The notes: a model not told the origin generated them from the sequence alone. Counted from the stretch's first letter, positions 307 to 61,415 are shown. The stretch: 64,000 bases of DNA from Parcubacteria group bacterium Athens0714_16 (GCA_007376805.1 VMGX01000001.1:1034-65033), one strand, 5' to 3'. Made by a program: numbers and translations.

Positions 307-1221
307 CTATTTCTTGCCTAATAATATATTTATGGCCTTTGTCACAATTGGAAGAATATCATCATAAAGATTAAGGTCAACTATCTCTTTTAATTTAAAC
401 CATTTTGCATTATCAAGCCCACCGGATTTTCCAAGTTTTAATTCTTTATATTTTGCTTCTCCAAGAAAATACATAACCTGTTTTCTTATCTTTCCTTTTT
501 CTGGATCTGATGCAATATATTCATTGCTTCCTAATTTTTCTTTTATTTTTATATCAACACCTATTTCTTCTTTTATTTCTCTTACAGTCGCTTCTTTTTC
601 ATCTTCTCCTGCCTCTATTCTTCCTTTTGATAATGTCCAATGCCCAAACACATCATGCACAAATGCAAGATATATTTCATTTCCGGCCTGCGCGGGCAAA
701 TCTTTTTTGGCATAAACAACCGAACCACCAAGTTTTTCTATTGGCATTTCTTCATATGGAATATCTTTAATTTTTTTCTTTGTAGTTTCTTCCTTCCCTG
801 GTTCACCCAATTCTTTATATACAGAACCCAAAACTCCATTAACAAATCTACCACTACTTTCACCACCAAATCCTTTTGCAAGTTCTATGGATTCATTTAT
901 AGCAACCTTCGGAGGGACTTCTTTTCTACTAGAAAAAAGAAGTTCATACAAACCAATTCTTAAAATATTTCTATCAATAACCGCTATTTTTTCAATAGGC
1001 CATTCTGGGGCAGCCTTTGTTATGATACCGTCAAGTTTGGGTAAATTTTTAACAACACCTTTTGCAAGGTTTTTTATAAATTCACCATCATCAACACCAG
1101 GAGCAAACTCTTCTATATTTCGATTAATAATTTCATCCAATTCTTTTGTTTTTTTCCCAGAAAAATCCCACTCAAAAAGAGATTGCATTACTATTGACCG
1201 CGAAAGATGTCTGTTTGCCAT
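307..1221 (-). CDS. nusB: NusB antitermination factor fused to a C-terminal Nudix hydrolase domain
   Basis: N-terminal ~150 aa are NusB-like (RSIVMQSLFEWDF, RNILRIGLYELLF, PPKVAINESIELAK). After a Lys/Glu linker there is a Nudix fold with box GRIEAGEDEKEATVREIKEEIGV. Confidence 0.75.
   Translation of the reverse strand: MANRHLSRSIVMQSLFEWDFSGKKTKELDEIINRNIEEFAPGVDDGEFIKNLAKGVVKNLPKLDGIITKAAPEWPIEKIAVIDRNILRIGLYELLFSSRKEVPPKVAINESIELAKGFGGESSGRFVNGVLGSVYKELGEPGKEETTKKKIKDIPYEEMPIEKLGGSVVYAKKDLPAQAGNEIYLAFVHDVFGHWTLSKGRIEAGEDEKEATVREIKEEIGVDIKIKEKLGSNEYIASDPEKGKIRKQVMYFLGEAKYKELKLGKSGGLDNAKWFKLKEIVDLNLYDDILPIVTKAINILLGKK
683..706. repeat. GC-rich hairpin module H3 inside the nusB-Nudix CDS
   Basis: ccggcctgcgcgggcaaatctttt, encodes KKDLPAQAG on the minus strand. 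Confidence 0.8.
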
Positions 1222-3770: not shown

Positions 3771-6700
3771 ATGAATCCCAAATTTACACATCTCCACACT
3801 CACTCTCATTACAGCTTGCTTAATGCATTACCAAAAATACCGGAACTTGTTTCTGCTACAAAAGAAAAAAATATGAGCGCCGTTGCTCTTACTGATAACG
3901 GAAATCTTTATGGTGCAATTGAATTTTATAAAGAATGTAAAAAAGAAAACATAAAACCAATTATAGGTGTTGATTTTTATGTTGCACTTCGCACACGGCA
4001 CGATAGACAACCAGGGATTGATAGTAAAAGATACAGATTGGTGTTGTTAGCAAAAAATCATGATGGATATAAAAATTTAATAAAATTAGTAAGTGATTCA
4101 CATCTTACTGGTTTCTATTACAAACCAAGAATAGACAAAGAACTAATGAAAAAATATTCTGAAGGACTTATTGCAATAATTCCATCTTTTAGTGGAGAAA
4201 TAATAGAAAAAGTAAAAAACAGTGATTTTGAAACAGCAAAGAAAATTTTAAATGAGTATGAAGAAATTTATGGAAAAGAAAATTTGTTTGTAGAAATTAC
4301 ACATCACCCAGAAATTGACGGACATAATTTTATAACGAAAAAAACAATTGAATTTGCAAAAGACCTGTCCGCCTCTGGCGGAAGTGGAGCAAATTTAGTG
4401 GCATCACATGATGTTTATTATATACACCCAGAAGATAGAGAGGCACGAAATACACTTTTATCTATACAAACAAATCTTGACTTTGGCTCCAATAAACGAC
4501 TAACAAGCGAAGATGAGGACTTTTCTTTTATAGGACAAGAACAGGCAGAAAAATATTTTGCTGAAATTCCCGAAGCACTTGAAAACACACAAAAAATTTC
4601 TAACATGTGTAATTTAGAAATTAGTCTTGGTGGCTGGATCTTCCCTGAGGCAAAATCTACCAACGGATTAAACCATGATGACGAATTGTATAAATTAATA
4701 TACGACGGTTTAATTGAAAGAAAATTGGAAAAAACAGAAGAAGTTTTAAAAAGAATTGAATACGAGTATGGAATAATAAAAAAGAAAGGATATTGTCCAT
4801 ACTTTTTGGTTGTTAGTGATTTATTAAAATTCGCATTAAAAAATAACATCTTTACAAACACCAGGGGTTCTGCTGCTGGCTCACTTGTTTCTTATTTAAT
4901 TGGAATAACAAATATAAATCCTCTTGAATATCAAATTCCATTTGAAAGATTTTTAAATCCCGATAGGCCTTCGCTCCCCGATATAGATATTGATATGGCA
5001 GATAACAGGCGAGATGAAATGGTTCAATATGCAAAAGAAAAATATGGAGAAGACAGAGTCGCACAAATTGGGACATTCGGAACAATGGCAGCACGAGGAG
5101 CAATTCGTGACACAGCACGAGCATTAGGTTATCAATATGAAATCGGAGATAAAATATCAAAACAGATTCCTCTTGGGAAACAAGGTTTCCCAATGACAAT
5201 AGATAGAGCACTGGATGAAAATTCTGATTTGAAAAAAATGTACGCGACAGATAAAGACGTTAAAAAAATTGTAGATATGGCAAGAAAAATTGAAGGATGT
5301 GCAAGACACATTTCCGTTCATGCAGCAGGTATCGTTATCTCTCCAATTCCAGTAACAGAGTTCACACCAATTCAATTTGATCCGAAGGGTGGAAAATTAA
5401 TAACACAATATGATATGTATTCTATAGACCCCGACTATGGTGGTGTAGGACTTTTAAAATTTGATTTTCTTGGTTTAAAAAATCTCTCAATACTCGCAAG
5501 CTCAGTTGATTTAGTAAAAAAAATAAAAGGTGTGGATATTGATATACAAAATATTCAAATTGATGACAAAAAAACATTTGAGATGTTGGCTCGTGGAGAA
5601 ACTATGGGCGTATTTCAAATGGGTAGTGATGGGATGACAAAATATTTAAAAGATTTAAGACCGACCGAAATAAGAGATATAAACGCAATGATTGCTCTTT
5701 ATCGTCCCGGCCCGATGGCTTTTATTCCTGAATATATTAAAAGAAAAAGAAATCCTAAACTTGTAAAATATATTGACGAGAGATTAAGAAAAATTCTTGA
5801 AAAAACTTATGGGATTTTGATTTACCAGGACGATATTCTACTTATAGTCACAGAGCTTGCTGGCTATTCTTGGGCAGAGGCAGATAAATTTAGAAAAGCT
5901 GTTGGGAAAAAAATTCCACAAGAGATGCAAGCGCAAAAAGAAAAGTTCACCAGTGGTTGTATCAAAAACGGGATGAAACCAGATGTTGCAAAACAACTTT
6001 GGGAAATGATTGAAACATTCGCGGCATATGGTTTTAATAAGGCCCATTCTGTAAGTTACGGCAGAGTTACATATCAAACTGCTTACATGAAAGCTAATTT
6101 CCCTGTTATTTATATGTCCGCACTTCTAACCGCAGATGCAGGAGATGTTGAAAAAATTTCCGAAACAATTAACGAATGTAAAAGAATGGGGATTGAAGTT
6201 TTGCCCCCAAACATAAATGAAAGTTTTGGTAATTTTACTGTTATAGAAGAAGACGGAAAAGACAAAATTCGTTTTGGACTTTACAGTATCAAAAACTTTG
6301 GGGAAGGTATCGCTGATAAAATTATTACTACAAGAAAAGAGAGCGGTAGATTTAACTCGCTGGAAGATTTTTTAAATAAAGTAAAAGATAAAAATGTAAA
6401 TAAAAAATCTTTAGAAGCACTCATAAAATGTGGTGCCATGGATGAACTTGGTGAACGAGGACAAATGTTTGAAAATGTAGAAGATTTATTGTTGTATCAT
6501 CGCGAAGGGAAAAAAACAGACGAATCACAGGAGTCGTTGTTTGGTTTGATGGCAGATAGTTCAACAATACCAAAACTAAAACTCAATGAATCAATGCCCG
6601 CAACACAAACTGATAAGCTAACATGGGAAAAGGAACTGCTTGGTTTATACATTTCCGGACACCCACTTGATAAATTCAAAAACCAGCTCGAAAAAAGACA

Positions 6701-11430: not shown

Positions 11431-11552
11431 CAAAACTCTCTAAATGAGAGTTTTGATCCATAATGCTTTGTTTTTTTGAAACTCTCTAAATGAGAGTTTT
11501 GATCCATAATGCTTTGTTTTTTTGTTTTTTTGAAACTCTCTAAATGAGAGTT
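11431..11552. repeat. Tandem repeat (about 46-54 bp x 2.5) of hairpin plus GATCCATAAT motif
   Basis: aaactctctaaatgagagttttgatccataatgctttgttttttt repeated. ORF 11430..11612 over it is spurious. Confidence 0.85.
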
Positions 11553-12040: not shown

Positions 12041-12053
12041 TGGACCAGAGAGG
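12041..12053 (-). other. Detached 3' segment of tRNA-Ala(UGC): T-stem 3' strand, acceptor 3' strand and discriminator
   Basis: CCUCU CUGGUCC A pairs with GGGGG (two G:U) and with GGGCCAG, giving G3:U70. A terminator hairpin follows at 12003..12033. Confidence 0.7.
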
Positions 12054-12165
12054 ACTCGACACAGGTCTCTAATTCGCTACGCTCATAAGAGCCTGTCGTC
12101 ACGACTCGGCGACAAGCACTCGCTTTGCTCGTCTTGTATACCGCCTCCGTCTTTCGAGTCCTAAC
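12049..12165 (-). repeat. Repeat X, distal copy (117 bp), ends in the true tRNA-Ala T-stem strand
   Basis: 116/117 identical to 15909..16025; the single difference is 12064 g versus 15924 a. Confidence 0.95.
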
Positions 12166-12312
12166 ACATCATATAAAACTTCAAACCGCTTGAAAAGCTA
12201 TCTTTCTAGATTTTGGATCTATTATAATTCAAGTCCAAAACTACAAAATATGCTTATAAATGCTTAAGGAGTTATTTATGAAAGGGGCACAAAGAGAGTA
12301 TTGAATTATTTA

Positions 12313-14052
12313 TCAACTAATTTTAAGTTTTTCTGCCCAGCAGTTTTTATTTTCTTCGTCTGGCACTGCAATTACCAATAATCTGCTCGGACGAGATATT
12401 GCCACATAGACATTTCTTAATTCTTCCTCTTCAGATATTTTACTGTTAGCTAACATAGTTTTGTAAGATTTCATCACTTTCTTTTTAAGAAATACAAGAA
12501 CTGCTTCAAAAGTTTCTCCTTTCACTTTATGAATTGTGCTAGGTCTATAGTCTGTTGGGACACTGTCAATATGTTCTTGTGGAAAGAGTTGAGAAAATTG
12601 TGCCTCCTTTAGGTTTTGATTTATTTTTAATTCAAATTCGTAATTTTTAGAACTAATGACTAAATTTGCTTCAGCTATCCACGCTCCAAGTCTAGTTGCA
12701 CTAACTGCTTTTGGGAGTAATTTTACAAATTTATATAACTCTTTTCTTAAGTTGCTAAATCCTCGTTCTTCAACAAACATATTAAAATTTTCTTCTGAAA
12801 AGTATGAGATGTTCTGTGTTGCCTTTAAGAAACCTCTTTCAATATATTTCATACCTCTAATAAAATCATTTCTATCATATAGGAACTTACCAAGAGCAAA
12901 ATCTCTGGTAAATGGAGATCCAACTAGCCAAGGACTTTCTCTATTGGGATTAGAGATAGCTTGTGTAAAAAAACTTTTTGACCTAAATAACACAGCTACA
13001 TTTTTAGGATTAAATTCAATACCATATTCCTTACACTTATTCTTGAAACTATTTAAGGTGGATTTTTTACCAGTAATAGTCTCCTCGTATGTCCATATTT
13101 CAGGACAGATATCACAGTCTTTTACTTTTTTATTAGTGGCAATGATTTTTCTTTCTCCTAATGAAGAAAAATTATAGACGACATCACATATTTTTTGTGA
13201 ACTACGCCAACTTTCATCTAGAATAATAGAATTGTTTTTCCAGTCCTGTTCTTTTTCTATGAATAAACTGGGTTTTGCGTCATTCCACTCAAATATAGCT
13301 TGATCTGGGTCGCCCACAATCATTATATTTTCCAAACCAGATTTTACAATAATATCTATGATTTGCATTTGTATTTCGGTGGTATCTTGTGCTTCATCAA
13401 TAATGAAAACAGGAAATCTTAAAGCCAATGATCTAGCAATTTTAGGATACTGCTCTAATATCTTTAATGCAAAATAGTTTGCATCTGCTTGAGTTGCAAA
13501 ACCCTTCTCATTAAAATCTTTCTTCATTTTTTGTAGTTTTTCATAATGACCATTCACTGTTTTTCCATTAGCATTTATTTTATTAGGAAAACCACCGAAG
13601 AAGTATTGAGCATCATTTTTTGGACACAAATCACCGTCTATTTTGTAACTAACTTTATCAAAGTATCTATTATAGTCTCTTTCATAAGCACCACCATTCC
13701 AAATACCGTATGGTTCTCCAACCATTATTGGGCGTTTTTCACAACCCAGAACAAGATGTCCAAACGGGAGAAAAATATATTGATTTATAAAACTATCAAT
13801 CGTGCCTAAAAAATGTGGGTAAGAAATGTGTGTATCAAAATCTTTTATACAGTTATCTCTTATTTCTTGCCAAGCAGTATTGGTAAAAGATATAGTAGCT
13901 ATACCTTTATATTCTTCAGTCCATTCAGATATTAACTTTGAGAATTTAGCTGAAACGCAGTATGTTTTACCGCTACCTGGACAAGCACGAACAACAAATT
14001 TTCCAGTTTTTCCTAAAACCTCTCTTTGTTTGTCTGATAATTTACTGAACAT
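12313..14052 (-). CDS. gajB: UvrD-like superfamily 1 helicase, GajB-like
   Basis: Walker A ACPGSGKTY, DEAQD box (FIIDEAQDT), and C-terminal VHKVKGETFEAVLV. It starts 3 nt after the gajA stop. Confidence 0.75.
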   Translation of the reverse strand: MFSKLSDKQREVLGKTGKFVVRACPGSGKTYCVSAKFSKLISEWTEEYKGIATISFTNTAWQEIRDNCIKDFDTHISYPHFLGTIDSFINQYIFLPFGHLVLGCEKRPIMVGEPYGIWNGGAYERDYNRYFDKVSYKIDGDLCPKNDAQYFFGGFPNKINANGKTVNGHYEKLQKMKKDFNEKGFATQADANYFALKILEQYPKIARSLALRFPVFIIDEAQDTTEIQMQIIDIIVKSGLENIMIVGDPDQAIFEWNDAKPSLFIEKEQDWKNNSIILDESWRSSQKICDVVYNFSSLGERKIIATNKKVKDCDICPEIWTYEETITGKKSTLNSFKNKCKEYGIEFNPKNVAVLFRSKSFFTQAISNPNRESPWLVGSPFTRDFALGKFLYDRNDFIRGMKYIERGFLKATQNISYFSEENFNMFVEERGFSNLRKELYKFVKLLPKAVSATRLGAWIAEANLVISSKNYEFELKINQNLKEAQFSQLFPQEHIDSVPTDYRPSTIHKVKGETFEAVLVFLKKKVMKSYKTMLANSKISEEEELRNVYVAISRPSRLLVIAVPDEENKNCWAEKLKIS

Positions 14053-14055
14053 AAA

Positions 14056-15813
14056 TTATTCATTTTTAGCAACATATTTTATAGCTTTTTCAATATATTT
14101 AGGGATGATAAAGTTATCAAAAGCCGATTGATCATTTTCTAGTCTAACCGCTAATCTGTGAGCTAATTCTGATTTTGATTTTTGATCATCAACTTTGTCA
14201 GCAAAATTCTTTGCATAAATTTTTTCATCTTTGTCTGGTGTTATTACTGTTAATGGATGAAATTCTTTATATATTTCTAATAATAATGTTTGATTATATT
14301 TACTTGCCAAAAAAAGCTCATATTCAAAAGTCATTTCTCCAGTAAAAACTTTTAATAAGCCAGTTTCTAATGTTTTTACTTTTCCTGCTCTTGTAGAACC
14401 ATCATCATTGATATTTTTCCTATCATCATCTGTTATAACGGCACAACGATGATTTATTCTTTTTTGTGAGTCAGATGAATTAAAAAGTTTTGCAAAGTGT
14501 TCAAAAGCAACCCCGTTTATATTTACAACTTCAATTCCAAGATTGTTAAGAAAATAATTTATACCTATCTTTTTACTGAAAATTGGTAATAATAATGACT
14601 CTGATATTCCTTCTACTAGGATTGTTCCATTTGCAAAGAATAACTGTGATTTTGTGACATCTAAAAATTTTTGAAGGAATTTTTTATTATTTTCATTTAG
14701 TTCAGAGTTTATTACAGAAAGAGCAAAAGTTTCATTTGATATATGTTGTAAAACAATCAAGGAGTCTAGACCAGCTTTTGCTGTTATTGTTGGAGAATGA
14801 GACGAAACAAAGGTCTGAAAATTTTGATTAGTAGAAAGTTCTGACAAATAATTAAAAAATAGGTTTTGTAGCTGTGGATGTAAGTGAGCTTCTGGTTCTT
14901 CAATTAAAAGTGAAAAATAAGAGTTTGAGTCTTTTTCTTTTTTTTGTTTTATGTCTCCTAAAACAGTAGCTATATATATTAAATTGTTATACCCCAAACC
15001 ATTCTGCCAAATACTCAAATAGCGTTGTTCGTAAGTAGGGTCTTTATCAAGAATATCTTTATCAAAAACTGGTATTTGTATATGTAGATTGTTAAGTATT
15101 TCCGCAAAACCAAGTCCACTAAAACTAATTTCTATTTTTTGAGTTTTATCAGAAAATGTAGTTTTATCTAAATGTTCACAGACTTTTTCTTTACCTTTAT
15201 TTATAAAATCTTTCCAATTTTCATTTTCTAACACCGTTTTTATTTCTTTTACCAATCCTTTTTTCTGCTCTTCTGTGTATGTTTCAATCTCGGAATAAAG
15301 TCTAGATAATTTACTATCTTTAAATGGTTTCAAAAACTGTTCTGCGTCTCGGAGAGCTCCCAAATGAACATAGTTAATTAACTGTAATACCTCATTAGAT
15401 ATTTGCTGTCCTTCATTTTCTCCACCCCATATTTTATATTTTAACTTTCCTTTTACATCTAAATAATATCTTATATGTAATTGTAGACTTGTTTCTCCAT
15501 TATCCTCATCAATTGTTAACATTTCTCTAAAAATTGCAGTTTCTGACTCATCTTCTATAACAAAAAGTAAATCAAATTTAACTTCATTTGTAATTTGAGC
15601 TGGATTGGTTCTGTCAATGTGAAAATCATTTTCTTTTGAAAAATATATATCTCTTCGTAAACTTCCCCAACCAAGAGATAAGCGTAAAGCATCAACGATT
15701 GCAGTTTTTCCAACATTGTTTTCTCCTACTAAAATATTGAGTCCTTTCTTAAAATGGAGAATGAGGTCTTTTACTGTTCTATAGTTTTGTATTCTAAAAT
15801 CTCTTAAATACAT
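14056..15813 (-). CDS. gajA: OLD-family ATPase plus Toprim nuclease, GajA-like
   Basis: From ATG 15811-15813: MYLRDFRIQNYRTVKDL..LVGENNVGKTAIVDAL (ABC/AAA15-type Walker A), LLIEEPEAHLHP (Walker B/D-loop), and Toprim ILVEGISE ... AVITDDD. The track start at 15924 runs into repeat X and is rejected. Confidence 0.8.
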   Translation of the reverse strand: MYLRDFRIQNYRTVKDLILHFKKGLNILVGENNVGKTAIVDALRLSLGWGSLRRDIYFSKENDFHIDRTNPAQITNEVKFDLLFVIEDESETAIFREMLTIDEDNGETSLQLHIRYYLDVKGKLKYKIWGGENEGQQISNEVLQLINYVHLGALRDAEQFLKPFKDSKLSRLYSEIETYTEEQKKGLVKEIKTVLENENWKDFINKGKEKVCEHLDKTTFSDKTQKIEISFSGLGFAEILNNLHIQIPVFDKDILDKDPTYEQRYLSIWQNGLGYNNLIYIATVLGDIKQKKEKDSNSYFSLLIEEPEAHLHPQLQNLFFNYLSELSTNQNFQTFVSSHSPTITAKAGLDSLIVLQHISNETFALSVINSELNENNKKFLQKFLDVTKSQLFFANGTILVEGISESLLLPIFSKKIGINYFLNNLGIEVVNINGVAFEHFAKLFNSSDSQKRINHRCAVITDDDRKNINDDGSTRAGKVKTLETGLLKVFTGEMTFEYELFLASKYNQTLLLEIYKEFHPLTVITPDKDEKIYAKNFADKVDDQKSKSELAHRLAVRLENDQSAFDNFIIPKYIEKAIKYVAKNE

Positions 15814-15908
15814 AAGATATATTTTACCACATTTTGTCAAAAAAATCTTGAAAAAAATAGAAAAACTTACAAATACGATGTTGAAAACCAAAGAGAGAAT
15901 GAGATCAT

Positions 15909-16025
15909 AGAGGACTCGACACAAGTCTCTAATTCGCTACGCTCATAAGAGCCTGTCGTCACGACTCGGCGACAAGCACTCGCTTTGCTCGTCTTGTATA
16001 CCGCCTCCGTCTTTCGAGTCCTAAC
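15909..16025 (-). repeat. Repeat X, proximal copy (117 bp), fused to the tRNA-Ala T-loop
   Basis: It starts right after UUCGAGU of the tRNA. Its first bases (UAGGACUCGAA) are an inverted copy of the T-loop. It is followed by AUGAUCU, a decayed CUGGUCC. Confidence 0.95.
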
Positions 16026-16083
16026 TCGAACCCCCTACCTCCTCAGTGCAAGTGAGGCGCTCTACCAGGTGAGCTACTGGCCC
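16024..16083 (-). tRNA. tRNA-Ala(UGC), positions 1-60 only (interrupted after the T-loop)
   Basis: GGGCCAG UA GCUC ACCUGGUA GAGC G CCUCA CUUGCAC UGAGG AGGUA GGGGG UUCGAGU, then repeat X instead of the T-stem 3' strand. Confidence 0.8.
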
Positions 16084-29861: not shown

Positions 29862-29961
29862 AAAAATTAATTTCTAAGACAGAAAATAGGGACTCGGTCA
29901 CAAATCACTAATTATTTTTACAACAAAGTTGAAAAAATAAATAAGTGTTTGCCGACCCCAA

Positions 29962-30019
29962 CTCAGCGACAAGCACTCACTTTGCTCGTCTTGTATACCG
30001 CTTCCGTCTTTCGAGTTCC
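29962..30019 (-). repeat. Partial X-like repeat about 60 nt downstream of tRNA-Gln
   Basis: GGAACTCGAAAGACGGAAGCGGTATACAAGACGAGCAAAGTGAGTGCTTGTCGCTGAG matches the first ~58 nt of X with 5 mismatches by eye. Confidence 0.8.
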
Positions 30020-30079
30020 AATCCACACGAGCAATCGAGTGGAATTTTTAACACATAGCTATGTTAAAAATTTCGCTTG

Positions 30080-30150
30080 CTGGGGGATAGGGACTCGAAC
30101 CCCAATACCTTGCGCCAAAGGCAAGTGTCCTACCATTAGACGATCCCCCA
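30080..30150 (-). tRNA. tRNA-Gln(UUG)
   Basis: UGGGGGA UC GUCU AAUGGUA GGAC A CUUGC CUUUGGC GCAAG GUAU UGGGG UUCGAGU CCCUA UCCCCCA G. It has the U1:A72 pair that I recall as typical of bacterial tRNA-Gln. Confidence 0.85.
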
Positions 30151-40267: not shown

Positions 40268-41788
40268 ATGAACACAGACGTAAAAAAACTAACTGATGGA
40301 TTTTCAGAAGAAGAAAGCTGCATAATAAAGAAAGCTTTTGAATTTGCTGAAAAACACCATAAACAACAAAAGAGACTCTCTGGTGAACCTTACTTTATCC
40401 ATCTATATAAAACCGCCTATATATTAAAAGAACTCGGTATGGGTCCAAAAACAATCGTTGCTGGGTTACTTCATGATGTTATAGAAGATGGTTGGACCGA
40501 TGAAAATATAATAAAAAAAGAATTCGGTGAAGAAATTATTTTTTTAATCGAGGGAGTAACAAAGCTTGGAAAAATAAAATTTGGAGGAGTAAAAAGATAT
40601 GTCGAAAGCTTAAGAAAATTACTTATAGCAACATCAGAAGACATTCGCGTACTCATAATAAAACTAGCTGACCGTTTACATAATATGAGAACGTTGGAAT
40701 ATATAAAAGATGACGAAAAAAGAAAAAGAATCGCAACTGAAACAATAGAAGTATATGCACCGATTGCCCATAGATTGGGTATGGGAAAATTAAAATGTGA
40801 ACTAGAAGATTTGTCTTTTAAATATTTATTTCCAGATGAATACAGCGCTGTAAAAAAAATGTTGGAAGACAAACATGGAAAAAACATCAAATCATTAAAA
40901 GAAATAAATGACGTTTTAAAAAAGAACTTGGAAAAAGAAAAGATTCACATTGAGGAAATGGGCTATAGAAAAAAACATTTGTATAGTTTGTATAAAAAAT
41001 TACAACAAAAAGAAATGGATATAGATAATGTTTTTGATGTTTTTGCTTTAAGGGTAATCGTTCCTACCATTGGAGACTGTTATAAAGTACTTGGTATTGT
41101 ACACAGTATATGGAAACCATTACTAGGAAAAATAAAAGATTACATCGCGACACCAAAACCAAATGGGTATAAAAGTATACATACAACTATATTTACCGGA
41201 AATGGAGATGTTGTAGAAATTCAGGTCAGAACAATGGAAATGCATAAGGAAGCCGAATACGGAATTGCCGCACATATTTCTTACAAAGAAAAAAACAATG
41301 AAAAAAACTCAAAGAAAGATTTGTTGTGGTTTAATAAAATTTCATCTTTGGCAAAAAAAGAAAGCTTAAATACTTCAACTGATGAAATTAAAAAAGAACC
41401 ACCAAAATGGATAAAGGACCTAGCTGAAATCCAAACAGAAATCCCAACATCAGAAGATTTTATGAACACTTTAAAAAATGATTTTTTTGAGAACAGAATT
41501 TTCGTATTTACACCAAATGGAGATGTTATTGATTTACCTATGAATTCGACACCATTGGATTTTGCATATCACATACACTCAGATATTGGAGACCACGCCT
41601 CTGGTGCAAAAGTAAATAATAAATTTGTATCACTTGATACGAATTTAAAAAACGGAGATATCGTTGAAATAACGGTAAACAAAAATGGTCACCCAACACA
41701 AAAATGGTTAAGCATCGTAAAAACATCAACAGCCAAAAGATTTATAAGACAATCTTTGTTAAAAAATTCAAATTCAAAACATTCTTAA
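40268..41788 (+). CDS. Bifunctional (p)ppGpp synthetase/hydrolase, RelA/SpoT homolog (HD-Synth-TGS)
   Basis: HD domain (LLHDVIEDG), synthetase (YKSIHTTI..EIQVRT) and a TGS domain at the C-terminus. Confidence 0.9.
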   Translation: MNTDVKKLTDGFSEEESCIIKKAFEFAEKHHKQQKRLSGEPYFIHLYKTAYILKELGMGPKTIVAGLLHDVIEDGWTDENIIKKEFGEEIIFLIEGVTKLGKIKFGGVKRYVESLRKLLIATSEDIRVLIIKLADRLHNMRTLEYIKDDEKRKRIATETIEVYAPIAHRLGMGKLKCELEDLSFKYLFPDEYSAVKKMLEDKHGKNIKSLKEINDVLKKNLEKEKIHIEEMGYRKKHLYSLYKKLQQKEMDIDNVFDVFALRVIVPTIGDCYKVLGIVHSIWKPLLGKIKDYIATPKPNGYKSIHTTIFTGNGDVVEIQVRTMEMHKEAEYGIAAHISYKEKNNEKNSKKDLLWFNKISSLAKKESLNTSTDEIKKEPPKWIKDLAEIQTEIPTSEDFMNTLKNDFFENRIFVFTPNGDVIDLPMNSTPLDFAYHIHSDIGDHASGAKVNNKFVSLDTNLKNGDIVEITVNKNGHPTQKWLSIVKTSTAKRFIRQSLLKNSNSKHS

Positions 41789-41819
41789 AAAACAAAAAAA
41801 ATATCGTGGATAAAAAAGC
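41787..41819. repeat. 33-bp direct repeat copy 1 containing CGTGGATAA
   Basis: aaaaaacaaaaaaaatatcgtggataaaaaagc, repeated at 41888..41920. Confidence 0.8.
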
Positions 41820-56675: not shown

Positions 56676-56814
56676 ATTCAAAAGCCCTGGGAGGGCTTTT
56701 GAATCCATAATTATTTTTTTGTGTTATGCCCTGACTTTAAAATCTCTAAATGAGATTTTAAAGAAACGTGTTGGTTTTTAGACCGTTATGGGCTTTTGAA
56801 TCCATAATTATTTT

Positions 56815-57141
56815 ATGACATTAAGACAAGAAAAAGTAAGGGGACTTATAACAGAGCTTTCTGCTGAATTTATACAATACCAAGCAAACACAAAATCAAT
56901 GATAACAGTTACTGATTGTAATGTTTCTAGTGATTTGAAAAAATCTACAATATTTGTAACTGTCTTCCCTGCTGAAAATGAAAAAGAAGCAATGGATTTT
57001 TTAAAAAGAAAACGAAGAGAGTTTAGAGAATTTATTAAATCAAAAATGAAGTTTATGAGAAGTGTTCCATTTTTTGATTTTGAAATAGATAAAGGGGAAA
57101 AGAACAGACAAAGAATTGATGAAATCTCAAATAAAATATAG
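56815..57141 (+). CDS. rbfA: Ribosome-binding factor A
   Basis: 108 aa, in the conserved position after infB, with the ITVTDCNVSSDLKKSTIFV pattern. Confidence 0.8.
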   Translation: MTLRQEKVRGLITELSAEFIQYQANTKSMITVTDCNVSSDLKKSTIFVTVFPAENEKEAMDFLKRKRREFREFIKSKMKFMRSVPFFDFEIDKGEKNRQRIDEISNKI

Positions 57142-57166
57142 AATAGATTGTGTTTCTTTGATAAAC

Positions 57167-57241
57167 GGCCGCGTAGCCAAGTGGTAAGGCGAGAGTCTGC
57201 AAAACTCTTACACATGGGTTCGATTCCCGTCGCGGCCTCCA
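57167..57241 (+). tRNA. tRNA-Cys(GCA), CCA encoded
   Basis: GGCCGCG UA GCC AAGUGGUAA GGC G AGAGU CUGCAAA ACUCU UACAC AUGGG UUCGAUU CCCGU CGCGGCC U CCA. Confidence 0.9.
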
Positions 57242-57256
57242 TAGCATGTTGAAATT

Positions 57257-57338
57257 GCCCGGGTGGCGGAACTGGTATACGCGCACGACTTAAAATCGTG
57301 TCCTGTATGGGATGCGGGTTCGATTCCCGCCCCGGGCA
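57257..57338 (+). tRNA. tRNA-Leu(UAA)
   Basis: GCCCGGG UG GCG GAACUGGUAUA CGC G CACGA CUUAAAA UCGUG UCCUGUAUGGGAU GCGGG UUCGAUU CCCGC CCCGGGC A. Confidence 0.9.
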
Positions 57339-57507
57339 CAAAGTAATTGGGGAATAAGCAAATTTCCTCCAGAGACGGACAAGTATTTGCTTATGTCGGG
57401 AATCGAATGATTTTTTATGTTGAGCGTAGCGAAACAAAAAATCACGGGTGAGCAAAGCGAAATTCCCCCTGCCTGCGCAGGCAGGGCCCCGGGCACAAAG
57501 TGATTGG
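57339..57507 (+). repeat. tRNA-Leu(UAA) 3'-flank element ending in a duplicate of the tRNA 3' end
   Basis: 57329..57350 (gccccgggcacaaagtaattgg) recurs at 57486..57507 with 1 mismatch. The interior has stems ATAAGCAAAT/ATTTGCTTAT, TGATTTTTT/AAAAAATCA and GGGAAT/ATTCCC. Confidence 0.8.
57467..57486. repeat. GC-rich hairpin H3 (perfect 7-bp stem) inside the tRNA-Leu(UAA) flank element
   Basis: ccctgcctgcgcaggcaggg. Confidence 0.75.
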
Positions 57508-57562
57508 AGAGAAAACAAATTCAAAATGTTTTTTTGATTTTTTAATTAAAAACTTTTTATAT

Positions 57563-57635
57563 CCGCCCGTAGCTCAGTTGGTAGAGCAGCTGCCTCTTAA
57601 GCAGACGGTCGTAGGTTCAAATCCTACCGGGCGGA
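57563..57635 (+). tRNA. tRNA-Lys(CUU), C1:G72 acceptor
   Basis: CCGCCCG UA GCUC AGUUGGUA GAGC A GCUGC CUCUUAA GCAGA CGGUC GUAGG UUCAAAU CCUAC CGGGCGG A. Confidence 0.85.
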
Positions 57636-57778
57636 CATGAAGTGTCCTGCGCGAGAAAACAAATTTATTTGTTTTTGTGTAGGATTTGAAAGGAATTTCG
57701 TTATTGAGTCCGAGTTTTTGCAAGGACGAAATCGAAATTCACCAGCGACCGTTGGGCGAAAATCCTACCGGGCGGACA
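57636..57778 (+). repeat. tRNA-Lys 3'-flank element ending in a duplicate of the tRNA 3' end
   Basis: 57619..57637 (aaatcctaccgggcggaca) recurs exactly at 57760..57778. Confidence 0.85.
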
Positions 57779-57838
57779 AAAAATAGTATAGTGGTCATAA
57801 AATATAAGTTTATTTTCAATTATTTTTTTAAATTAATA

Positions 57839-57868
57839 TTGGCAAACGCTATGTGTCTTAGGTATAAT
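57839..57868 (+). promoter_or_regulatory. Promoter of the LAGLIDADG gene (TTGGCA-N18-TATAAT), probably giving a leaderless transcript
   Basis: ttggcaaacgctatgtgtcttaggtataat. The ATG is 6 nt downstream of the -10 element. Confidence 0.55.
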
Positions 57869-57874
57869 ATAAAT

Positions 57875-58507
57875 ATGGAAAGATTAAAAAAAGTAAAAAT
57901 AAAATGGAGTGCAAATTTCGCTTATGCAATTGGTTTAATTACTACTGATGGTAATTTATCGCCAGATGGAAGGCATTTAAACATCACATCAAAAGATTTA
58001 AAATTGATTACGGATTTTAAAAAATGCCTCAATATCAAAAATAAAATTGGAAAAAAAGCACGAGGACATAGTAAAGAAAAAAAATATTTTGTTGTACAAT
58101 TTGGAGATGTTAATTTTTATGAGTTTTTGTTATCTATAGGATTAATGGCAGCAAAATCAAAAACATTATCTAAAATAGATATACCTAAAAAATATTTTGT
58201 TGATTTTTTAAGAGGATGTATAGACGGGGATGGGAATATTAGTATAAGTTATCATCCAGAAAGTAAACACCCGCAATTAAAAATAAGATTGGCTTCTGCA
58301 AGTTTAAATTTTCTTGAGTGGATTGAGAATGAAGTTTATAAACATATAAAAACAAACGGTGGTTGGATTTCTAAAGATAAATCAGTGTTTACTCTAAATT
58401 ATGCTAAAAAGGACTCTGTTAAATTATTAAAATTCATGTATTATAAAGGAGATTATTATTATTTAAAAAGAAAGTATCGGATTGGAAGAATGTTCTTAAA
58501 TAAATAA
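57875..58507 (+). CDS. Free-standing LAGLIDADG homing endonuclease (double motif)
   Basis: FAYAIGLITTDGNL and FLRGCIDGDGNI motifs. ATG 57875 lies 6 nt after TATAAT (57863-57868), so the mRNA is probably leaderless. The track start at 57686 overlaps tRNA-flank sequence and is rejected. Confidence 0.8.
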   Translation: MERLKKVKIKWSANFAYAIGLITTDGNLSPDGRHLNITSKDLKLITDFKKCLNIKNKIGKKARGHSKEKKYFVVQFGDVNFYEFLLSIGLMAAKSKTLSKIDIPKKYFVDFLRGCIDGDGNISISYHPESKHPQLKIRLASASLNFLEWIENEVYKHIKTNGGWISKDKSVFTLNYAKKDSVKLLKFMYYKGDYYYLKRKYRIGRMFLNK

Positions 58508-58526
58508 TTGGTTTTTAATGTTTTAT

Positions 58527-58607
58527 GCCGGGGTGGCGAAATGGTAGACGCGCTACGCTTAGGACGTAGTTTCGAAAGGAGTGGAGGTTCAAGTCCTCTC
58601 CCCGGCA
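58527..58607 (+). tRNA. tRNA-Leu(UAG)
   Basis: GCCGGGG UG GCG AAAUGGUAGA CGC G CUACG CUUAGGA CGUAG UUUCGAAAGGAGU GGAGG UUCAAGU CCUCU CCCCGGC A. Confidence 0.9.
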
Positions 58608-58758
58608 CATGAACGAAGTGAGAGTGACGAGAGTAAACAAATTTATTTGTTTGCGAGAGAGGATTTGAAAATCTTTTCGTTATTTATGAAGAGCTTTGCT
58701 CTGAATAAATCGAAAAGATGAACAGAATCTGTAAGATTCAAGTCCTCTCCCCGGCACC
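58608..58758 (+). repeat. tRNA-Leu(UAG) 3'-flank element ending in a duplicate of the tRNA 3' end (distal copy followed by CCA)
   Basis: 58588..58608 (ttcaagtcctctccccggcac) recurs exactly at 58738..58758. Homologous to the Lys element. Confidence 0.85.
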
Positions 58759-58811: not shown

Positions 58812-58834
58812 TTGGCAAACGCTATGTGTCTTAG
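58812..58834 (+). promoter_or_regulatory. Second copy of the 23-nt promoter-like box, with no gene behind it
   Basis: ttggcaaacgctatgtgtcttag is identical to 57839..57861, followed by catatag. Confidence 0.4.
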
Positions 58835-58898
58835 CATATAGAAACAATCTTAGCAAAAAATAAGCTTAATTGAAAGATTTGAATGTTCTTTAAAAAAC

Positions 58899-59226: not shown

Positions 59227-59583
59227 CTAGTAGGTTGTGCCTGGAAGTGTAACAGTTGTGTCTGCGTCTCCTGGTACTTCAAGTGTTCCTTGTAGTAAGT
59301 AAACTACTCCCCAGACTGAAACCATAACAAACAAAGCAATTATCCCGTATATCATTATGCTTTTTCCTTCCTTTGCTTTTGCTTCATCTCCCGCATTCAA
59401 GATATATTGTGCAAGGCCGTAGAAGAAATATAGAAGAGCCAATGTCATAATTATAGGAACAAGTGTATCAATCCATCCTCCTACTTTTTCAATTATAGTC
59501 AATGGAGCATTATCATTAGTAACAGCAAGAGTAACAAATGGTAATAAAAACGCCATTGAAGATATTGATAGTATTTTTTTCAT
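59227..59583 (-). CDS. TrbC/VirB2-like small membrane protein (paralog 2)
   Basis: Signal peptide, TM, NAGDEAKAKEGKSIMIYGIIALFVMVSVWG. Confidence 0.55.
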   Translation of the reverse strand: MKKILSISSMAFLLPFVTLAVTNDNAPLTIIEKVGGWIDTLVPIIMTLALLYFFYGLAQYILNAGDEAKAKEGKSIMIYGIIALFVMVSVWGVVYLLQGTLEVPGDADTTVTLPGTTY

Positions 59584-59656
59584 AATTATTATTATTTACT
59601 AATTGTTAATTTAAATTTTACGACCTTTTTTATTTTACACAATAACGTGTTAATAA

Positions 59657-60004
59657 TTAATCGACTTGTATGGTTGGAACTGTCGGCGATATTGATTCTG
59701 TTACTCCAAACGTTCTCTGTAGAAAACCAACCAATCCCCACACTGAAATCATAACAAACAAGGCAATTATTCCATATATCATTATGCTTTTCCCTTCTTT
59801 TGCTTTTGATTCGTCCCCCGCATTCATAATATATGTTGCAAGACCATAAAAGAAGTATAAAAGGGCTAAGGTCATAACTATGGGAACAAGCGCTTCAACC
59901 CATGCTTGTAATTTCCCAATCAAAGTTTCGGCCGTTGTTGAATCGGCTGCAAATAAAAATAATGGAGCTAAAAAAATTGATGATACTAAAGCTATTTTTT
60001 TCAT
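59657..60004 (-). CDS. TrbC/VirB2-like small membrane protein (paralog 3)
   Basis: From ATG 60002-60004 (MKKIALVSS). NAGDESKAKEGKSIMIYGIIALFVMISVWG is nearly identical to the core of paralog 2. Confidence 0.55.
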   Translation of the reverse strand: MKKIALVSSIFLAPLFLFAADSTTAETLIGKLQAWVEALVPIVMTLALLYFFYGLATYIMNAGDESKAKEGKSIMIYGIIALFVMISVWGLVGFLQRTFGVTESISPTVPTIQVD

Positions 60005-60177
60005 AATATTTTTGTGTTTTTTTAACACATTTTTGATTAAAATCTCCTAATTTTTTTATCAAAAGATTATATTAATAATAATGTAATAAAGCCCTTTAAT
60101 CAATAATAAACTGTGGATTAAACAGACATAATTCTTTAAAATCTCATTAAGAGATTTTAAAGTCAAAGATTTTCAAA

Positions 60178-60492
60178 CTAAATACCAAATGTTTTTCTGA
60201 GAACACCCACCAGCGCCCAAATCGAGAAAATAACAAACAAACCAACTACCCCATAAAGCATTTTATTTCTACCCTCTTCTAATGCCTTCGTATCTCCTGC
60301 AGAACGAATAAATTCTGTAAGACCAAACAAAAACCATAAAAAAGAAAGACTGATTAGCAATGGAACAATAGAATTAATTAAAAGTTCTGCCGTGCTGTTT
60401 GCTATCTCTTTAAAATTACTTCCCGTTATAGTTGCCGCGCCAACAATCGAAGGTATCGTAAAAGAAAAAATGAGTAAGATTATTTTTTTCAT
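60178..60492 (-). CDS. TrbC/VirB2-like small membrane protein (paralog 4)
   Basis: Signal peptide, SAGDTKALEEGRNKMLYGVVGLFVIFSIWA. Confidence 0.55.
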   Translation of the reverse strand: MKKIILLIFSFTIPSIVGAATITGSNFKEIANSTAELLINSIVPLLISLSFLWFLFGLTEFIRSAGDTKALEEGRNKMLYGVVGLFVIFSIWALVGVLRKTFGI

Positions 60493-60562
60493 GATTTTGA
60501 TATATTGTAAATATTAAAAAATTTAACACCCTCCTTTAAAAGCTCTGGACGAGCTTTTAAAG

Positions 60563-60937
60563 TTATTTAAGATTATTAATAGTTCCACTAACAACAGCAG
60601 CTATCAAATTTGCCCCCAAAATAACAGCCGCGCCAATAACAACATAAAGTAATATTTCTTTTGCTTTTGTTATTTCTTCTGGCTTCCCCTGGGCCTTCAC
60701 AAACAAAAAACCAGCATAAATTATAAAAAATATAATTACCACACTACCTATGGGTGTCACTATATCTGTCAAAATTTTTGTTATTAGAGCCGGAACGGTT
60801 TTGGTTGTGCCCAGCGGATTAGTTAATTGTCCTGTCACATTTACATCCTCAGCATTAGCCCAGTATAAAGGAAAAAGCAACAAAAAAGATGCCATGCCCC
60901 ATGCTACTATTTTAATTTTTTCTATTTTAAAATACAT
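60563..60937 (-). CDS. TrbC/VirB2-like small membrane protein (paralog 5)
   Basis: AQGKPEEITKAKEILLYVVIGAAVILGA. Same architecture, more divergent. Confidence 0.5.
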   Translation of the reverse strand: MYFKIEKIKIVAWGMASFLLLFPLYWANAEDVNVTGQLTNPLGTTKTVPALITKILTDIVTPIGSVVIIFFIIYAGFLFVKAQGKPEEITKAKEILLYVVIGAAVILGANLIAAVVSGTINNLK

Positions 60938-60989
60938 ATTTTTTAATTGTTAAATCTATTAATTTAAATTAAATATTGTGAGTTAAATA

Positions 60990-61415
60990 TTATTTTAAAA
61001 CTTTTAAATAACTACCATCAATAAGTAATGCGTTCGCAATTGTATTAACGATAAGCCACGCAGCTAAAACTATAATAAATCCTATTAAAACATTCAAAAA
61101 AATTGTATGGGCTTTTTCTATTTGTCCCGGTTTCCCGCCGGCTGTTAAATATAAAACACCTGCATATGTAAACATTCCTACCGCAATTGGAGCAGCTATA
61201 TAAAAGGCAAATGTCATTATATTTTGAACAAGTGTTATCATGTCATTAAAACCACATCCACCGTTTGCATTTGTGCAAGTAGAAGCATCAATTATACCAT
61301 TTGGTGGTGGCGGAGCAGTTTCTGTCGCAAATAAGATAACTGGACTAAGTAATATAAATAACAAAACCAAAAACATTGGCAAAAAAAAGAGAATTTTTTT
61401 ATTTTTATTTATCAT
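60990..61415 (-). CDS. TrbC/VirB2-like small membrane protein (paralog 6)
   Basis: TAGGKPGQIEKAHTIFLNVLIGFIIVLAAW. Same architecture, with a Cys pair in the exposed segment. Confidence 0.5.
   Translation of the reverse strand: MINKNKKILFFLPMFLVLLFILLSPVILFATETAPPPPNGIIDASTCTNANGGCGFNDMITLVQNIMTFAFYIAAPIAVGMFTYAGVLYLTAGGKPGQIEKAHTIFLNVLIGFIIVLAAWLIVNTIANALLIDGSYLKVLK

Follow-up and report, generated by a model that had tools for sequence, protein, structure and literature searches.

Introduction

Several known systems share features with the elements described here. Islands integrated into transfer RNA (tRNA) or transfer-messenger RNA (tmRNA) genes, together with their cis-mobilisable derivatives, target the 3' part of the gene, are marked by a direct repeat running from the T-loop to the gene end, leave the gene intact with the original flank moved to the far end, accrete in tandem and carry defence cargo. 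The attC sites of integrons and the attP hairpin of CTX phage, served by host XerCD, fold on one strand through imperfect inverted arms and mimic the target duplex; the fold is strand-specific, no recombinase of their own is present or adjacent, and cassettes, 'empty' units and arrays occur. Miniature derivatives of IS200/IS605 (palindrome-associated, resembling repetitive extragenic palindromes) are small and gene-less with strand-specific hairpins, insert just 3' of a defined sequence, have a right end resembling the target, and pair with it through a guide beside the hairpin foot. Finally, tRNA-like RNAs (the tmRNA domain, viral tRNA-like structures, mascRNA and 3' external transcribed spacers) combine an acceptor/T-stem-like helix with a single-stranded tail and lie, as the present elements do, directly behind a tRNA in the same orientation. 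Features of these systems recur in a family of short units, three of which lie behind consecutive tRNA genes in a 64,000-nucleotide (nt) stretch of Parcubacteria group bacterium Athens0714_16 (GCA_007376805.1, VMGX01000001.1:1034-65033; hereafter the window, numbered from its first letter). The family is modular and is widespread in bacteria of the Candidate Phyla Radiation (CPR). Each unit contains an inverted copy of the tail of its own tRNA gene (a'), a structured core and a direct copy of the same tail (a). We put at about even the chance that the units represent a small insertion element that is non-autonomous, targets tRNA and tmRNA 3' ends and acts through a folded single strand.

None of the known systems matches the units throughout. 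Unlike tRNA islands, the units are 120-190 nt long and have no integrase nearby, and they possess a conserved covarying core and an inverted target copy, with one core type serving dozens of tRNAs; the tRNA-tail direct repeats and the reconstituted tRNA of an island are present, whereas an internal integrase is absent from the 141-157-nt units of the window, which hold no open reading frame (ORF). Unlike attC and the CTX attP, the units have neither R/L boxes (RYYYAAC/GTTRRRY) nor a dif-like site: their arms are tRNA-tail sequence ending in TCGAA / CGA, their centre is conserved (AGACGGAG...GAGTCGGGGTCG...GTGAC) while that of attC is variable, and their anchor is any tRNA gene rather than a single attI or dif site. 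The flanking ORFs included no integron integrase, and we know of no enzyme for the insertion of tRNA-tail units of this kind. IS200/IS605 targets are fixed sequences of 4-5 nt without duplication, whereas the units are flanked by a 17-22 nt tRNA tail that differs from tRNA to tRNA; guide and target would measure about 20 nt as against 4-5 nt, the hairpins of the two differ entirely in sequence, nothing there is equivalent to the long palindrome formed with the tRNA tail, and neither TnpA nor TnpB was seen when flanking ORFs were clustered. Miniature inverted-repeat transposable elements differ in having terminal inverted repeats, while the unit ends are not inverted repeats of each other; their target duplication is 2-10 bp instead of a 17-22 nt repeat that is always a tRNA tail, and the orientation of the units is fixed relative to the tRNA. 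Unlike tRNA-like RNAs, the units lack a T-loop or D-loop mimic, and their stems copy the neighbouring tRNA exactly. Searches of the full-text literature gave no description of such elements. Target choice and tail duplication are classical; the gene-less structured unit, the tailored inverted copy and the range of tRNAs served, which covers all of them, are not.

Occupied and empty sites at three tRNA genes

The tRNA genes were located with ARAGORN and Rfam (Rfam 15) in the window, which has a G+C content of 31.5% and encodes IF-2, RbfA and D-Ala-D-Ala ligase, all bacterial. Both programs identified three intact genes on the plus strand: tRNA-Leu(UAA) at 57257-57339 (Rfam tRNA score 61.5 bits; T-loop from 57319, discriminator A at 57338, C74 at 57339), tRNA-Lys(CUU) at 57563-57636 (71.6 bits) and tRNA-Leu(UAG) at 58527-58608. 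A preliminary description of this DNA had reported that each carries an insert at whose end the tRNA 3' end is repeated, and this was borne out: the inserts, also on the plus strand, are single units of 157 nt (57340-57496), 141 nt (57638-57778) and 149 nt (58609-58757), respectively. The Leu(UAA) tail at 57329-57350 recurs at 57486-57507 with 21 of 22 positions alike, and 86% similarity continues to 57364/57521. The proximal Lys copy, 57619-57637, is repeated exactly at 57760-57778. The Leu(UAG) tail at 58588-58608 likewise recurs exactly, although the distal copy lies at 58737-58757 and not at 58738-58758 as first given. The duplicated piece extends, as had been stated, from the T-loop to just beyond the discriminator. 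The original CCA overlaps the distal Leu(UAG) copy (C74 at 58757, then C58758 and A58759), and CCA follows this copy only (GGCA-CCA-GTA, against GGCA-CAT at the proximal copy), again in agreement with the earlier reading. Only seven intervals in the window contain a 17-mer recurring 30-260 nt downstream, and two of these are the tRNA tails. Other short-range direct repeats, at 11433-11498, 41787-41819 and 56693-56717 (at least 17-mers, recurring 46-101 nt downstream), have no connection with a tRNA. Protein-coding inserts were rejected, as no credible ORF is present: the ORFs there are only minus-strand read-throughs of the tRNAs (56808-57524 and 57290-57496) or begin ahead of the real ATG.

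A set of 74 CPR loci (L001-L074) was collected as homologues of a LAGLIDADG protein encoded between tRNA-Lys and tRNA-Leu(UAG). The gene order tRNA-Cys (57167-57241 in the window, plus strand, complete and high-scoring in both programs), tRNA-Leu(UAA), tRNA-Lys, endonuclease gene, tRNA-Leu(UAG) is common to the window, L001 and L008, and L001 is the closest relative (LAGLIDADG protein 82% identical). While the window has one unit behind each of tRNA-Leu(UAA), tRNA-Lys and tRNA-Leu(UAG), L001 has no insert behind tRNA-Lys and none behind tRNA-Leu(UAG), which reads GGCACCAGTAAGG, and L008 has no insert at any of these tRNAs. Orthologous loci lacking the insert, a comparison suggested in the preliminary description, thus defined the junctions. 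The filled Leu(UAG) site, GGCAC[ATGAA...GGCAC]CAGTA, compared with the empty one in L001, GGCACCAGTA, places the unit between C74 of the intact gene and the old flank, so that the tRNA is left undamaged. Apart from the window, L001 and L008, no further pairs of empty and filled orthologous sites were found among the fetched loci.

Behind tRNA-Leu(UAA), L001 carries three identical 120-nt units head to tail (2298-2657), homologous to the single unit in the window, with a 17-nt tail copy at each boundary and CCA after the last unit only. The array could have grown through successive insertions or unequal crossing-over, or a rolling-circle multimer could have integrated as a whole. CCA follows the proximal copy in none of 48 cases, as against 39 of 128 insert-free tRNAs, and six distal copies retain it.

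An inverted copy of the tRNA tail in each unit

The most telling feature of the inserts, absent from the preliminary description, is a segment in each that is complementary to the T-loop and the 3' strand of the T-stem of its own tRNA (57397-57407, 57679-57690 and 58657-58669). Reading on from the tRNA, the common order is an apex hairpin, then the inverted tail copy (a'), the structured core and the direct tail copy (a), with the original flank last; the unit is gene-less, and the apex hairpin is often terminator-like. In full, a' can span the complement of the T-loop, the T-stem 3' strand and the acceptor 3' strand, and a small conserved hairpin often lies within it at the equivalent of the acceptor/T-stem junction.

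The Leu(UAA) insert consists of a hairpin (57354-57394), the inverted T-arm copy CGGGAATCGAA (57397-57407), a helix at 57408-57444 with cap GAGCGTAGCGA, a second GAGCAAAGCGA loop (57450-57460) and a distal tail copy split into ATTCCCC (57462-57468) and GCCCCGGGCAC (57486-57496) by a palindrome at 57468-57485. This G+C-rich palindrome, CCTGCCTGCGCAGGCAGG, breaks the tail copy exactly at the T-stem/acceptor junction, and a near-identical one, CTGCCTGCCGGCAGGCAGG, is found at the equivalent point of an element behind tRNA-Phe in a distantly related genome (L006, about 4815-4835); it may be a small mobile hairpin inside the element. In the Lys insert, an anti-acceptor TGTCC (57643-57647) and the hairpin AAACAAATTTATTTGTTT (57657-57674), which is the small conserved hairpin mentioned above, precede the inverted T-arm copy GTAGGATTTGAA (57679-57690), the helices P2 (57692-57740) and P3 (57746-57758) and the distal tail copy. 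The Leu(UAG) insert is built alike, with the hairpin at 58635-58652, the inverted T-arm copy GAGAGGATTTGAA (58657-58669, one G.U pair), P2 (58671-58719), P3 (GAATC-TGTAA-GATTC, 58725-58739) and the distal tail copy. AAACAAATTTATTTGTTT occurs exactly twice, at 57657 and 58635.

Where tRNA stems contain G.U pairs, the two possible sources of a' can be told apart: in 52 cases a' has the base that would form a Watson-Crick pair with the 3' strand, and in 9 it repeats the base of the 5' strand. Descent of a' from a duplicated tRNA gene that had lost its middle was therefore ruled out. The T-loop, everything up to and including the apex hairpin, and a' together make up a single long near-perfect palindrome (down to -78 kcal/mol). 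Template-switch correction is well established for quasi-palindromes, and correction of this kind within the palindrome of tRNA tail, apex and a' probably maintains the match between a' and the neighbouring tRNA. An origin of a' by tRNA-primed or hairpin-primed reverse transcription was set aside as speculative: the boundary of a' (position 54) is at odds with the stops known for reverse transcriptases, and no gene for such an enzyme was seen in or next to the units.

Structured cores

The Lys and Leu(UAG) inserts had been called homologous on the basis of shared motifs and compensatory changes. Their helices GGAATTTCG/CGAAATTC and ATCTTTTCG/CGAAAAGAT, as well as the inner helices, are present and covary, and a covariance model (R1) built from the two cores and five look-alikes defines what we term the type-B core, consisting, on the tRNA strand, of a', P2, P3 with a UGUAA-type loop and the distal copy. 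Both units have this composition, and they score 76.1 bits (E 2e-15; Lys) and 90.1 bits (Leu(UAG)). The model recovered 24 members in 1.16 Mb of fetched CPR DNA, that is, 22 beyond the two known units, which are its only matches in the window. Type B folds into the long helix P2 and the short helix P3; 88% of cells pair, compared with 57% in shuffles and 33-49% with slid partners, and 22 of 24 pairs show compensatory changes.

The type-A core, first noticed as repeat X (see below), forms a three-way junction. One arm has a GAC/GTC helix, a G-GA/GA internal loop and a variable hairpin; the other has a conserved T-C-G/T-G-A base with a fixed G.U pair and a bulged A. Thirteen of 16 predicted pairs are changed on both sides. 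The earlier suggestion that some pairs are wobble pairs in the tRNA sense only also held, as one type-A position has 28 G.U pairs and no A.C, and a U.G pair is conserved at the base of P3 in type B. The fold thus belongs to the tRNA-sense strand. For both the Lys and the Leu(UAG) unit, folding is better on the sense than on the antisense strand, and the predicted fold of a single-stranded unit is cloverleaf-like. Core hairpins have loops of the AGYA, GNCG and C(GNA)G (triloop) types, with GNRA or UNCG in only 2 of 169, which weakly hints that the core acts as DNA; the terminator-like apex hairpins use GAAA/GNRA and UUCG loops.

The Leu(UAA) insert shares with repeat X the GAGC-N3-GCGA loops and the overall layout, as previously proposed. 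The motif GAGCRWAGCGA has nine matches against 0.96 expected, among them 57422, 57450, both X copies and a site behind tRNA-Gln. The proposal that all these loci form one family stands as regards layout and modules but not as regards a single alignable core, and at least three core types can be distinguished.

Distribution among CPR bacteria

The first 74 loci were surveyed for direct and inverted tail copies with strict thresholds on both, using the tail of another tRNA as control. There, a' and a were both present at 9 of 125 tRNAs, against 0-2 with the wrong tail, and the layout was seen behind Gly, Phe, Arg, Val, His and other Leu genes; across the 1.16 Mb, 68 of 301 tRNAs had both, a figure inflated by the choice of loci. 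The type-A pattern TCGAA-AGACGGAG...GAGTCGGGGTCG...GTGAC-CGA was found at more than 120 metagenome loci among the matches listed. Within these matches, a same-strand tRNA lies upstream of 93 of 124 type-A cores, most commonly at a distance of 60-66 nt, and these tRNAs represent 35 anticodons. Three further cores of the same set (L111, L143 and L173) lie about 60 nt behind the tRNA-like 3' end of tmRNA genes, so the family is not limited to tRNA genes, and two lie behind intron-containing tRNA genes that ARAGORN had missed. The introns in those two genes are group I introns (RF00028; L100 6016-6247 and L109 1727-1967; 89 and 76 bits).

Cores that are 90-98% identical can be flanked by unrelated a'/a pairs fitting different tRNAs, so the core has been exchanged or moved between tRNA loci, with arms fitted to each tRNA. 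Throughout, the units are short, non-coding, multi-copy and structured, and vary between relatives. The inserts had no Rfam match up to E = 10 (window-wide, only tRNA reached the gathering score), and L030, L005 and L049 had none up to E = 1. What had been named as speaking against the preliminary description was not what we found: further copies exist, their pairs covary, and the loci are not simple tandem duplications.

A split tRNA-Ala gene and cargo genes

Repeat X is present in two copies on the minus strand. X1 (15909-16024) has a type-A core and a short inverted copy, AGGACTCGAA, of its tRNA tail, and abuts the T-loop of a truncated tRNA-Ala(UGC) 5' part (16025-16083). X2 (12049-12164) is followed by the matching acceptor 3' strand CTGGTCCA (12041-12048), which would restore a perfect acceptor stem with G3:U70. 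Between X1 and X2 lies a complete Gabija anti-phage defence system, comprising GajA (14056-15816, E 2e-153) and GajB (12313-14052, E 4e-184), so that, across 12041-16083 (minus strand), X1, GajA, GajB and X2 in this order interrupt the T-loop of tRNA-Ala(UGC) with some 4 kb of DNA. A relative (L201) has an intact tRNA-Ala beside the same ligase gene (ddl).

Cargo was also found elsewhere. At L082, a DNA methylase and a Z1/ResIII protein are encoded between the tRNA tail and a'-core-a, and other loci carry DNA methylases, DUF3800, SocA/Panacea antitoxin and a GIY-YIG protein; the functions are defence, restriction-modification or toxin-antitoxin. At L038 (about 350-700, minus strand), a 90-amino-acid GIY-YIG gene lies between tRNA-His and the distal tail copy.

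A further related element in the window (29886-30078, minus strand) lies behind tRNA-Gln (30079-30150, minus strand). It has an apex hairpin (30043-30073), an imperfect inverted T-arm copy with the start of a type-A core (30004-30021) and a partial distal copy, CGAGTCCCTAT (29886-29896).

Nature of the units

The reading of the units as insertion elements draws on their presence or absence at fixed junctions, the tandem arrays, the independence from tRNA identity, the use of tmRNA genes, the occasional cargo and the exchange of cores between loci, and a working form that is single-stranded is indicated by the covarying fold, which is specific to one strand. The mobile form would be a single-stranded, probably circular molecule with one tail copy only; pairing of a' with a would rebuild a duplex copy of the tRNA-gene tail next to the three-way junction, and an enzyme encoded elsewhere would recognise this fold and join it to the tRNA gene within the common ~20 nt. 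By analogy, folded attC sites and the CTX-phage attP hairpin would be the closest precedents. A DNA rather than an RNA intermediate is the weaker part of this inference.

Several results weigh against the insertion-element reading. At informative positions, a' agrees with the proximal tail over the distal one (188 vs 52), and distal copies are frequently decayed or carry insertions; as a' tracks the proximal arm while the distal arm decays, the idea of an a':a duplex as the selected structure is weakened. For the resetting of a' and a when a core reaches a new tRNA, the reading offers only an inferred explanation. No transposase, integrase or reverse transcriptase was seen in or next to any unit, the examined cargo proteins include no recombinase, and clustering of 627 flanking ORFs gave only housekeeping families and no enriched mobility gene. 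No copy was found on viral contigs in two scans, and no autonomous relative was seen in those scans or in about 195 loci, complete genomes not having been searched; nor was an excised circle seen. Empty sites come from two relatives only, and no empty/filled polymorphism was seen within a population. Only 55 nt separate the Leu(UAA) unit from tRNA-Lys, which lacks a convincing promoter of its own, so the unit is probably transcribed. The conserved wobble pairs, the tandem G.A motifs and the tRNA-like outline suit RNA at least as well as single-stranded DNA. A phage attachment site was rejected as a candidate, since the three matches of the second viral-contig scan fall within coding regions and lack the remainder of the motif.

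A more specific proposal, which we hold only tentatively, is an integron-like cassette system operating on CPR tRNA and tmRNA genes or, as a variant, a core serving as scaffold of a guide RNA. In the former, a'-core-a may be a folded single-stranded recombination site that mimics the tRNA-tail duplex beside a conserved three-way junction, and an unlinked enzyme may insert cargo-less units or defence-gene cassettes behind any tRNA, leaving the gene unharmed. In the latter, a' may be a 20-nt guide that leads an unlinked effector to tRNA genes.

That the insert is mainly an RNA module co-transcribed with the tRNA, its spread being a side effect, seems to us rather unlikely, though it is the alternative that fares best. 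Such a module would fold into a minihelix resembling tRNA, with an acceptor-like stem, a side hairpin and an extended T-like stem, on a conserved three-way-junction scaffold. RNase P and RNase Z could release it to work as a small RNA. Another possibility is that a' serves, in cis or trans, as an antisense guide of 20 nt directed at the 3' half of the tRNA, for regulation, modification or quality control. The strong covariation, the strand-specific wobble pairs, the tandem G.A internal loop directly after a' in type A, the better folding of the sense strand of the Lys and Leu(UAG) units and the cloverleaf-like fold all accord with an RNA. So do the tRNA orientation in every case, the coincidence of the unit boundaries with the tRNA 3'-processing sites N73/C74, and the position of some units 38-89 nt upstream of the next same-strand tRNA, including the probably transcribed Leu(UAA) unit. 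However, most type-A units have a terminator-like hairpin (UUCG or GAAA loop) between the tRNA and a', so most transcripts should end ahead of the module, and a' would, if transcribed, trap the tRNA 3' half in a hairpin of at least 20 bp. The module is also dispensable, since L001 and L008 lack it at their counterparts of the Lys and Leu(UAG) sites; its core loops are unlike the GNRA/UNCG loops usual in structured RNAs, it matches no Rfam family, and cargo genes and tandem arrays would be left unexplained.

Clearly less probable is that the inserts are decayed islands or prophages of a tyrosine integrase, with the tail copies as attL and attR and the sequence between them as the residue of an attachment-site arm once cargo and integrase had been lost, as in cis-mobilisable elements. 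The segment from the tRNA T-loop to the gene end and tmRNA genes are typical integrase target sites, and here the repeat has just this span, tmRNA is used as well, the original flank is kept after the distal copy, some units enclose cargo, and arrays occur. Independent decay, however, would not yield one 100-190-nt layout behind 35 tRNA species, and neither the compensatory changes and conserved junction bases of the cores nor an inverted tail copy tailored to each tRNA would be expected. Moreover, an integrase was found in no cargo or flank, and no related attachment site on viral contigs.

We give very little credence to a T-loop intron spliced from the proximal to the distal copy, with a' as internal guide for both exon ends. 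In its favour, a' is complementary on both sides of any junction within the repeat, as a group I guide would be, CCA is present only at the distal Leu(UAG) copy, and X1 truly interrupts tRNA-Ala in the T-loop. Yet the unspliced genes already are complete, high-scoring tRNAs in which splicing would alter only the CCA, and tRNA-Ala would require removal of about 4 kb including two protein-coding genes. The inserts match no group I or other ribozyme family, although the same search does find those of group I in L100 and L109. At 120-150 nt, the units are also smaller than known self-splicing sizes, and distal copies are often degenerate. Local tandem duplication or slippage without mobility or function, with chance similarity of the inserts, can be practically discarded: short direct repeats can seed such events and the L001 array is possible by unequal crossing-over, but the inserted sequence is not copied from neighbouring DNA, the same covarying cores recur at more than 120 unrelated loci among the matches listed, and the motifs are far above chance.

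Roughly one in fourteen to one in four sampled CPR tRNA genes carry a unit, depending on the choice of loci, and few non-coding structures of these genomes covary as clearly as the conserved cores. Should the units be mobile, their landing pad is the T-arm and acceptor end of tRNA, the most conserved sequence of the cell, and they need no gene of their own; a trans-acting enzyme would be implied, and possibly a new way for defence genes to be delivered where genomes are very small. Should they act as RNAs, they would form a new class of tRNA-linked structured RNA. Either way, annotation is affected by false 'pseudo-tRNA' tails and split tRNAs such as tRNA-Ala in the window, and so are metagenome assembly (long palindromes and repeats) and the mapping of CPR defence islands.

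Neighbouring genes

The LAGLIDADG gene (57875-58507; Pfam LAGLIDADG_3, E 4e-9) has homologues 0-60 nt upstream of tRNA-Leu in nearly all 74 CPR loci, with or without inserts. An origin of the inserts driven by a homing endonuclease was therefore ruled out, and the gene is regarded as a separate feature. Its partner is mostly tRNA-Leu with anticodon UAG or GAG, sometimes UAA or CAA, and the conserved pair may reflect homing next to tRNA-Leu, co-transcription or a maturase-like role. Past the distal tail copies, similarity between the Lys and Leu(UAG) regions picks up again in a promoter-like box and a remnant of the homing-endonuclease gene. Just downstream of the Leu(UAG) unit (58812-58898), the promoter-like box recurs exactly (TTGGCAAACGCTATGTGTCTTAG); behind it come the opening 11 nt of the LAGLIDADG gene, with ATT in place of ATG, and then its last ~18 nt, which amounts to an internally deleted copy. 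Beyond it, five paralogous small proteins of 104-141 amino acids, each with a signal-like N-terminus and two hydrophobic segments, are encoded in a run on the minus strand (59227-61415).

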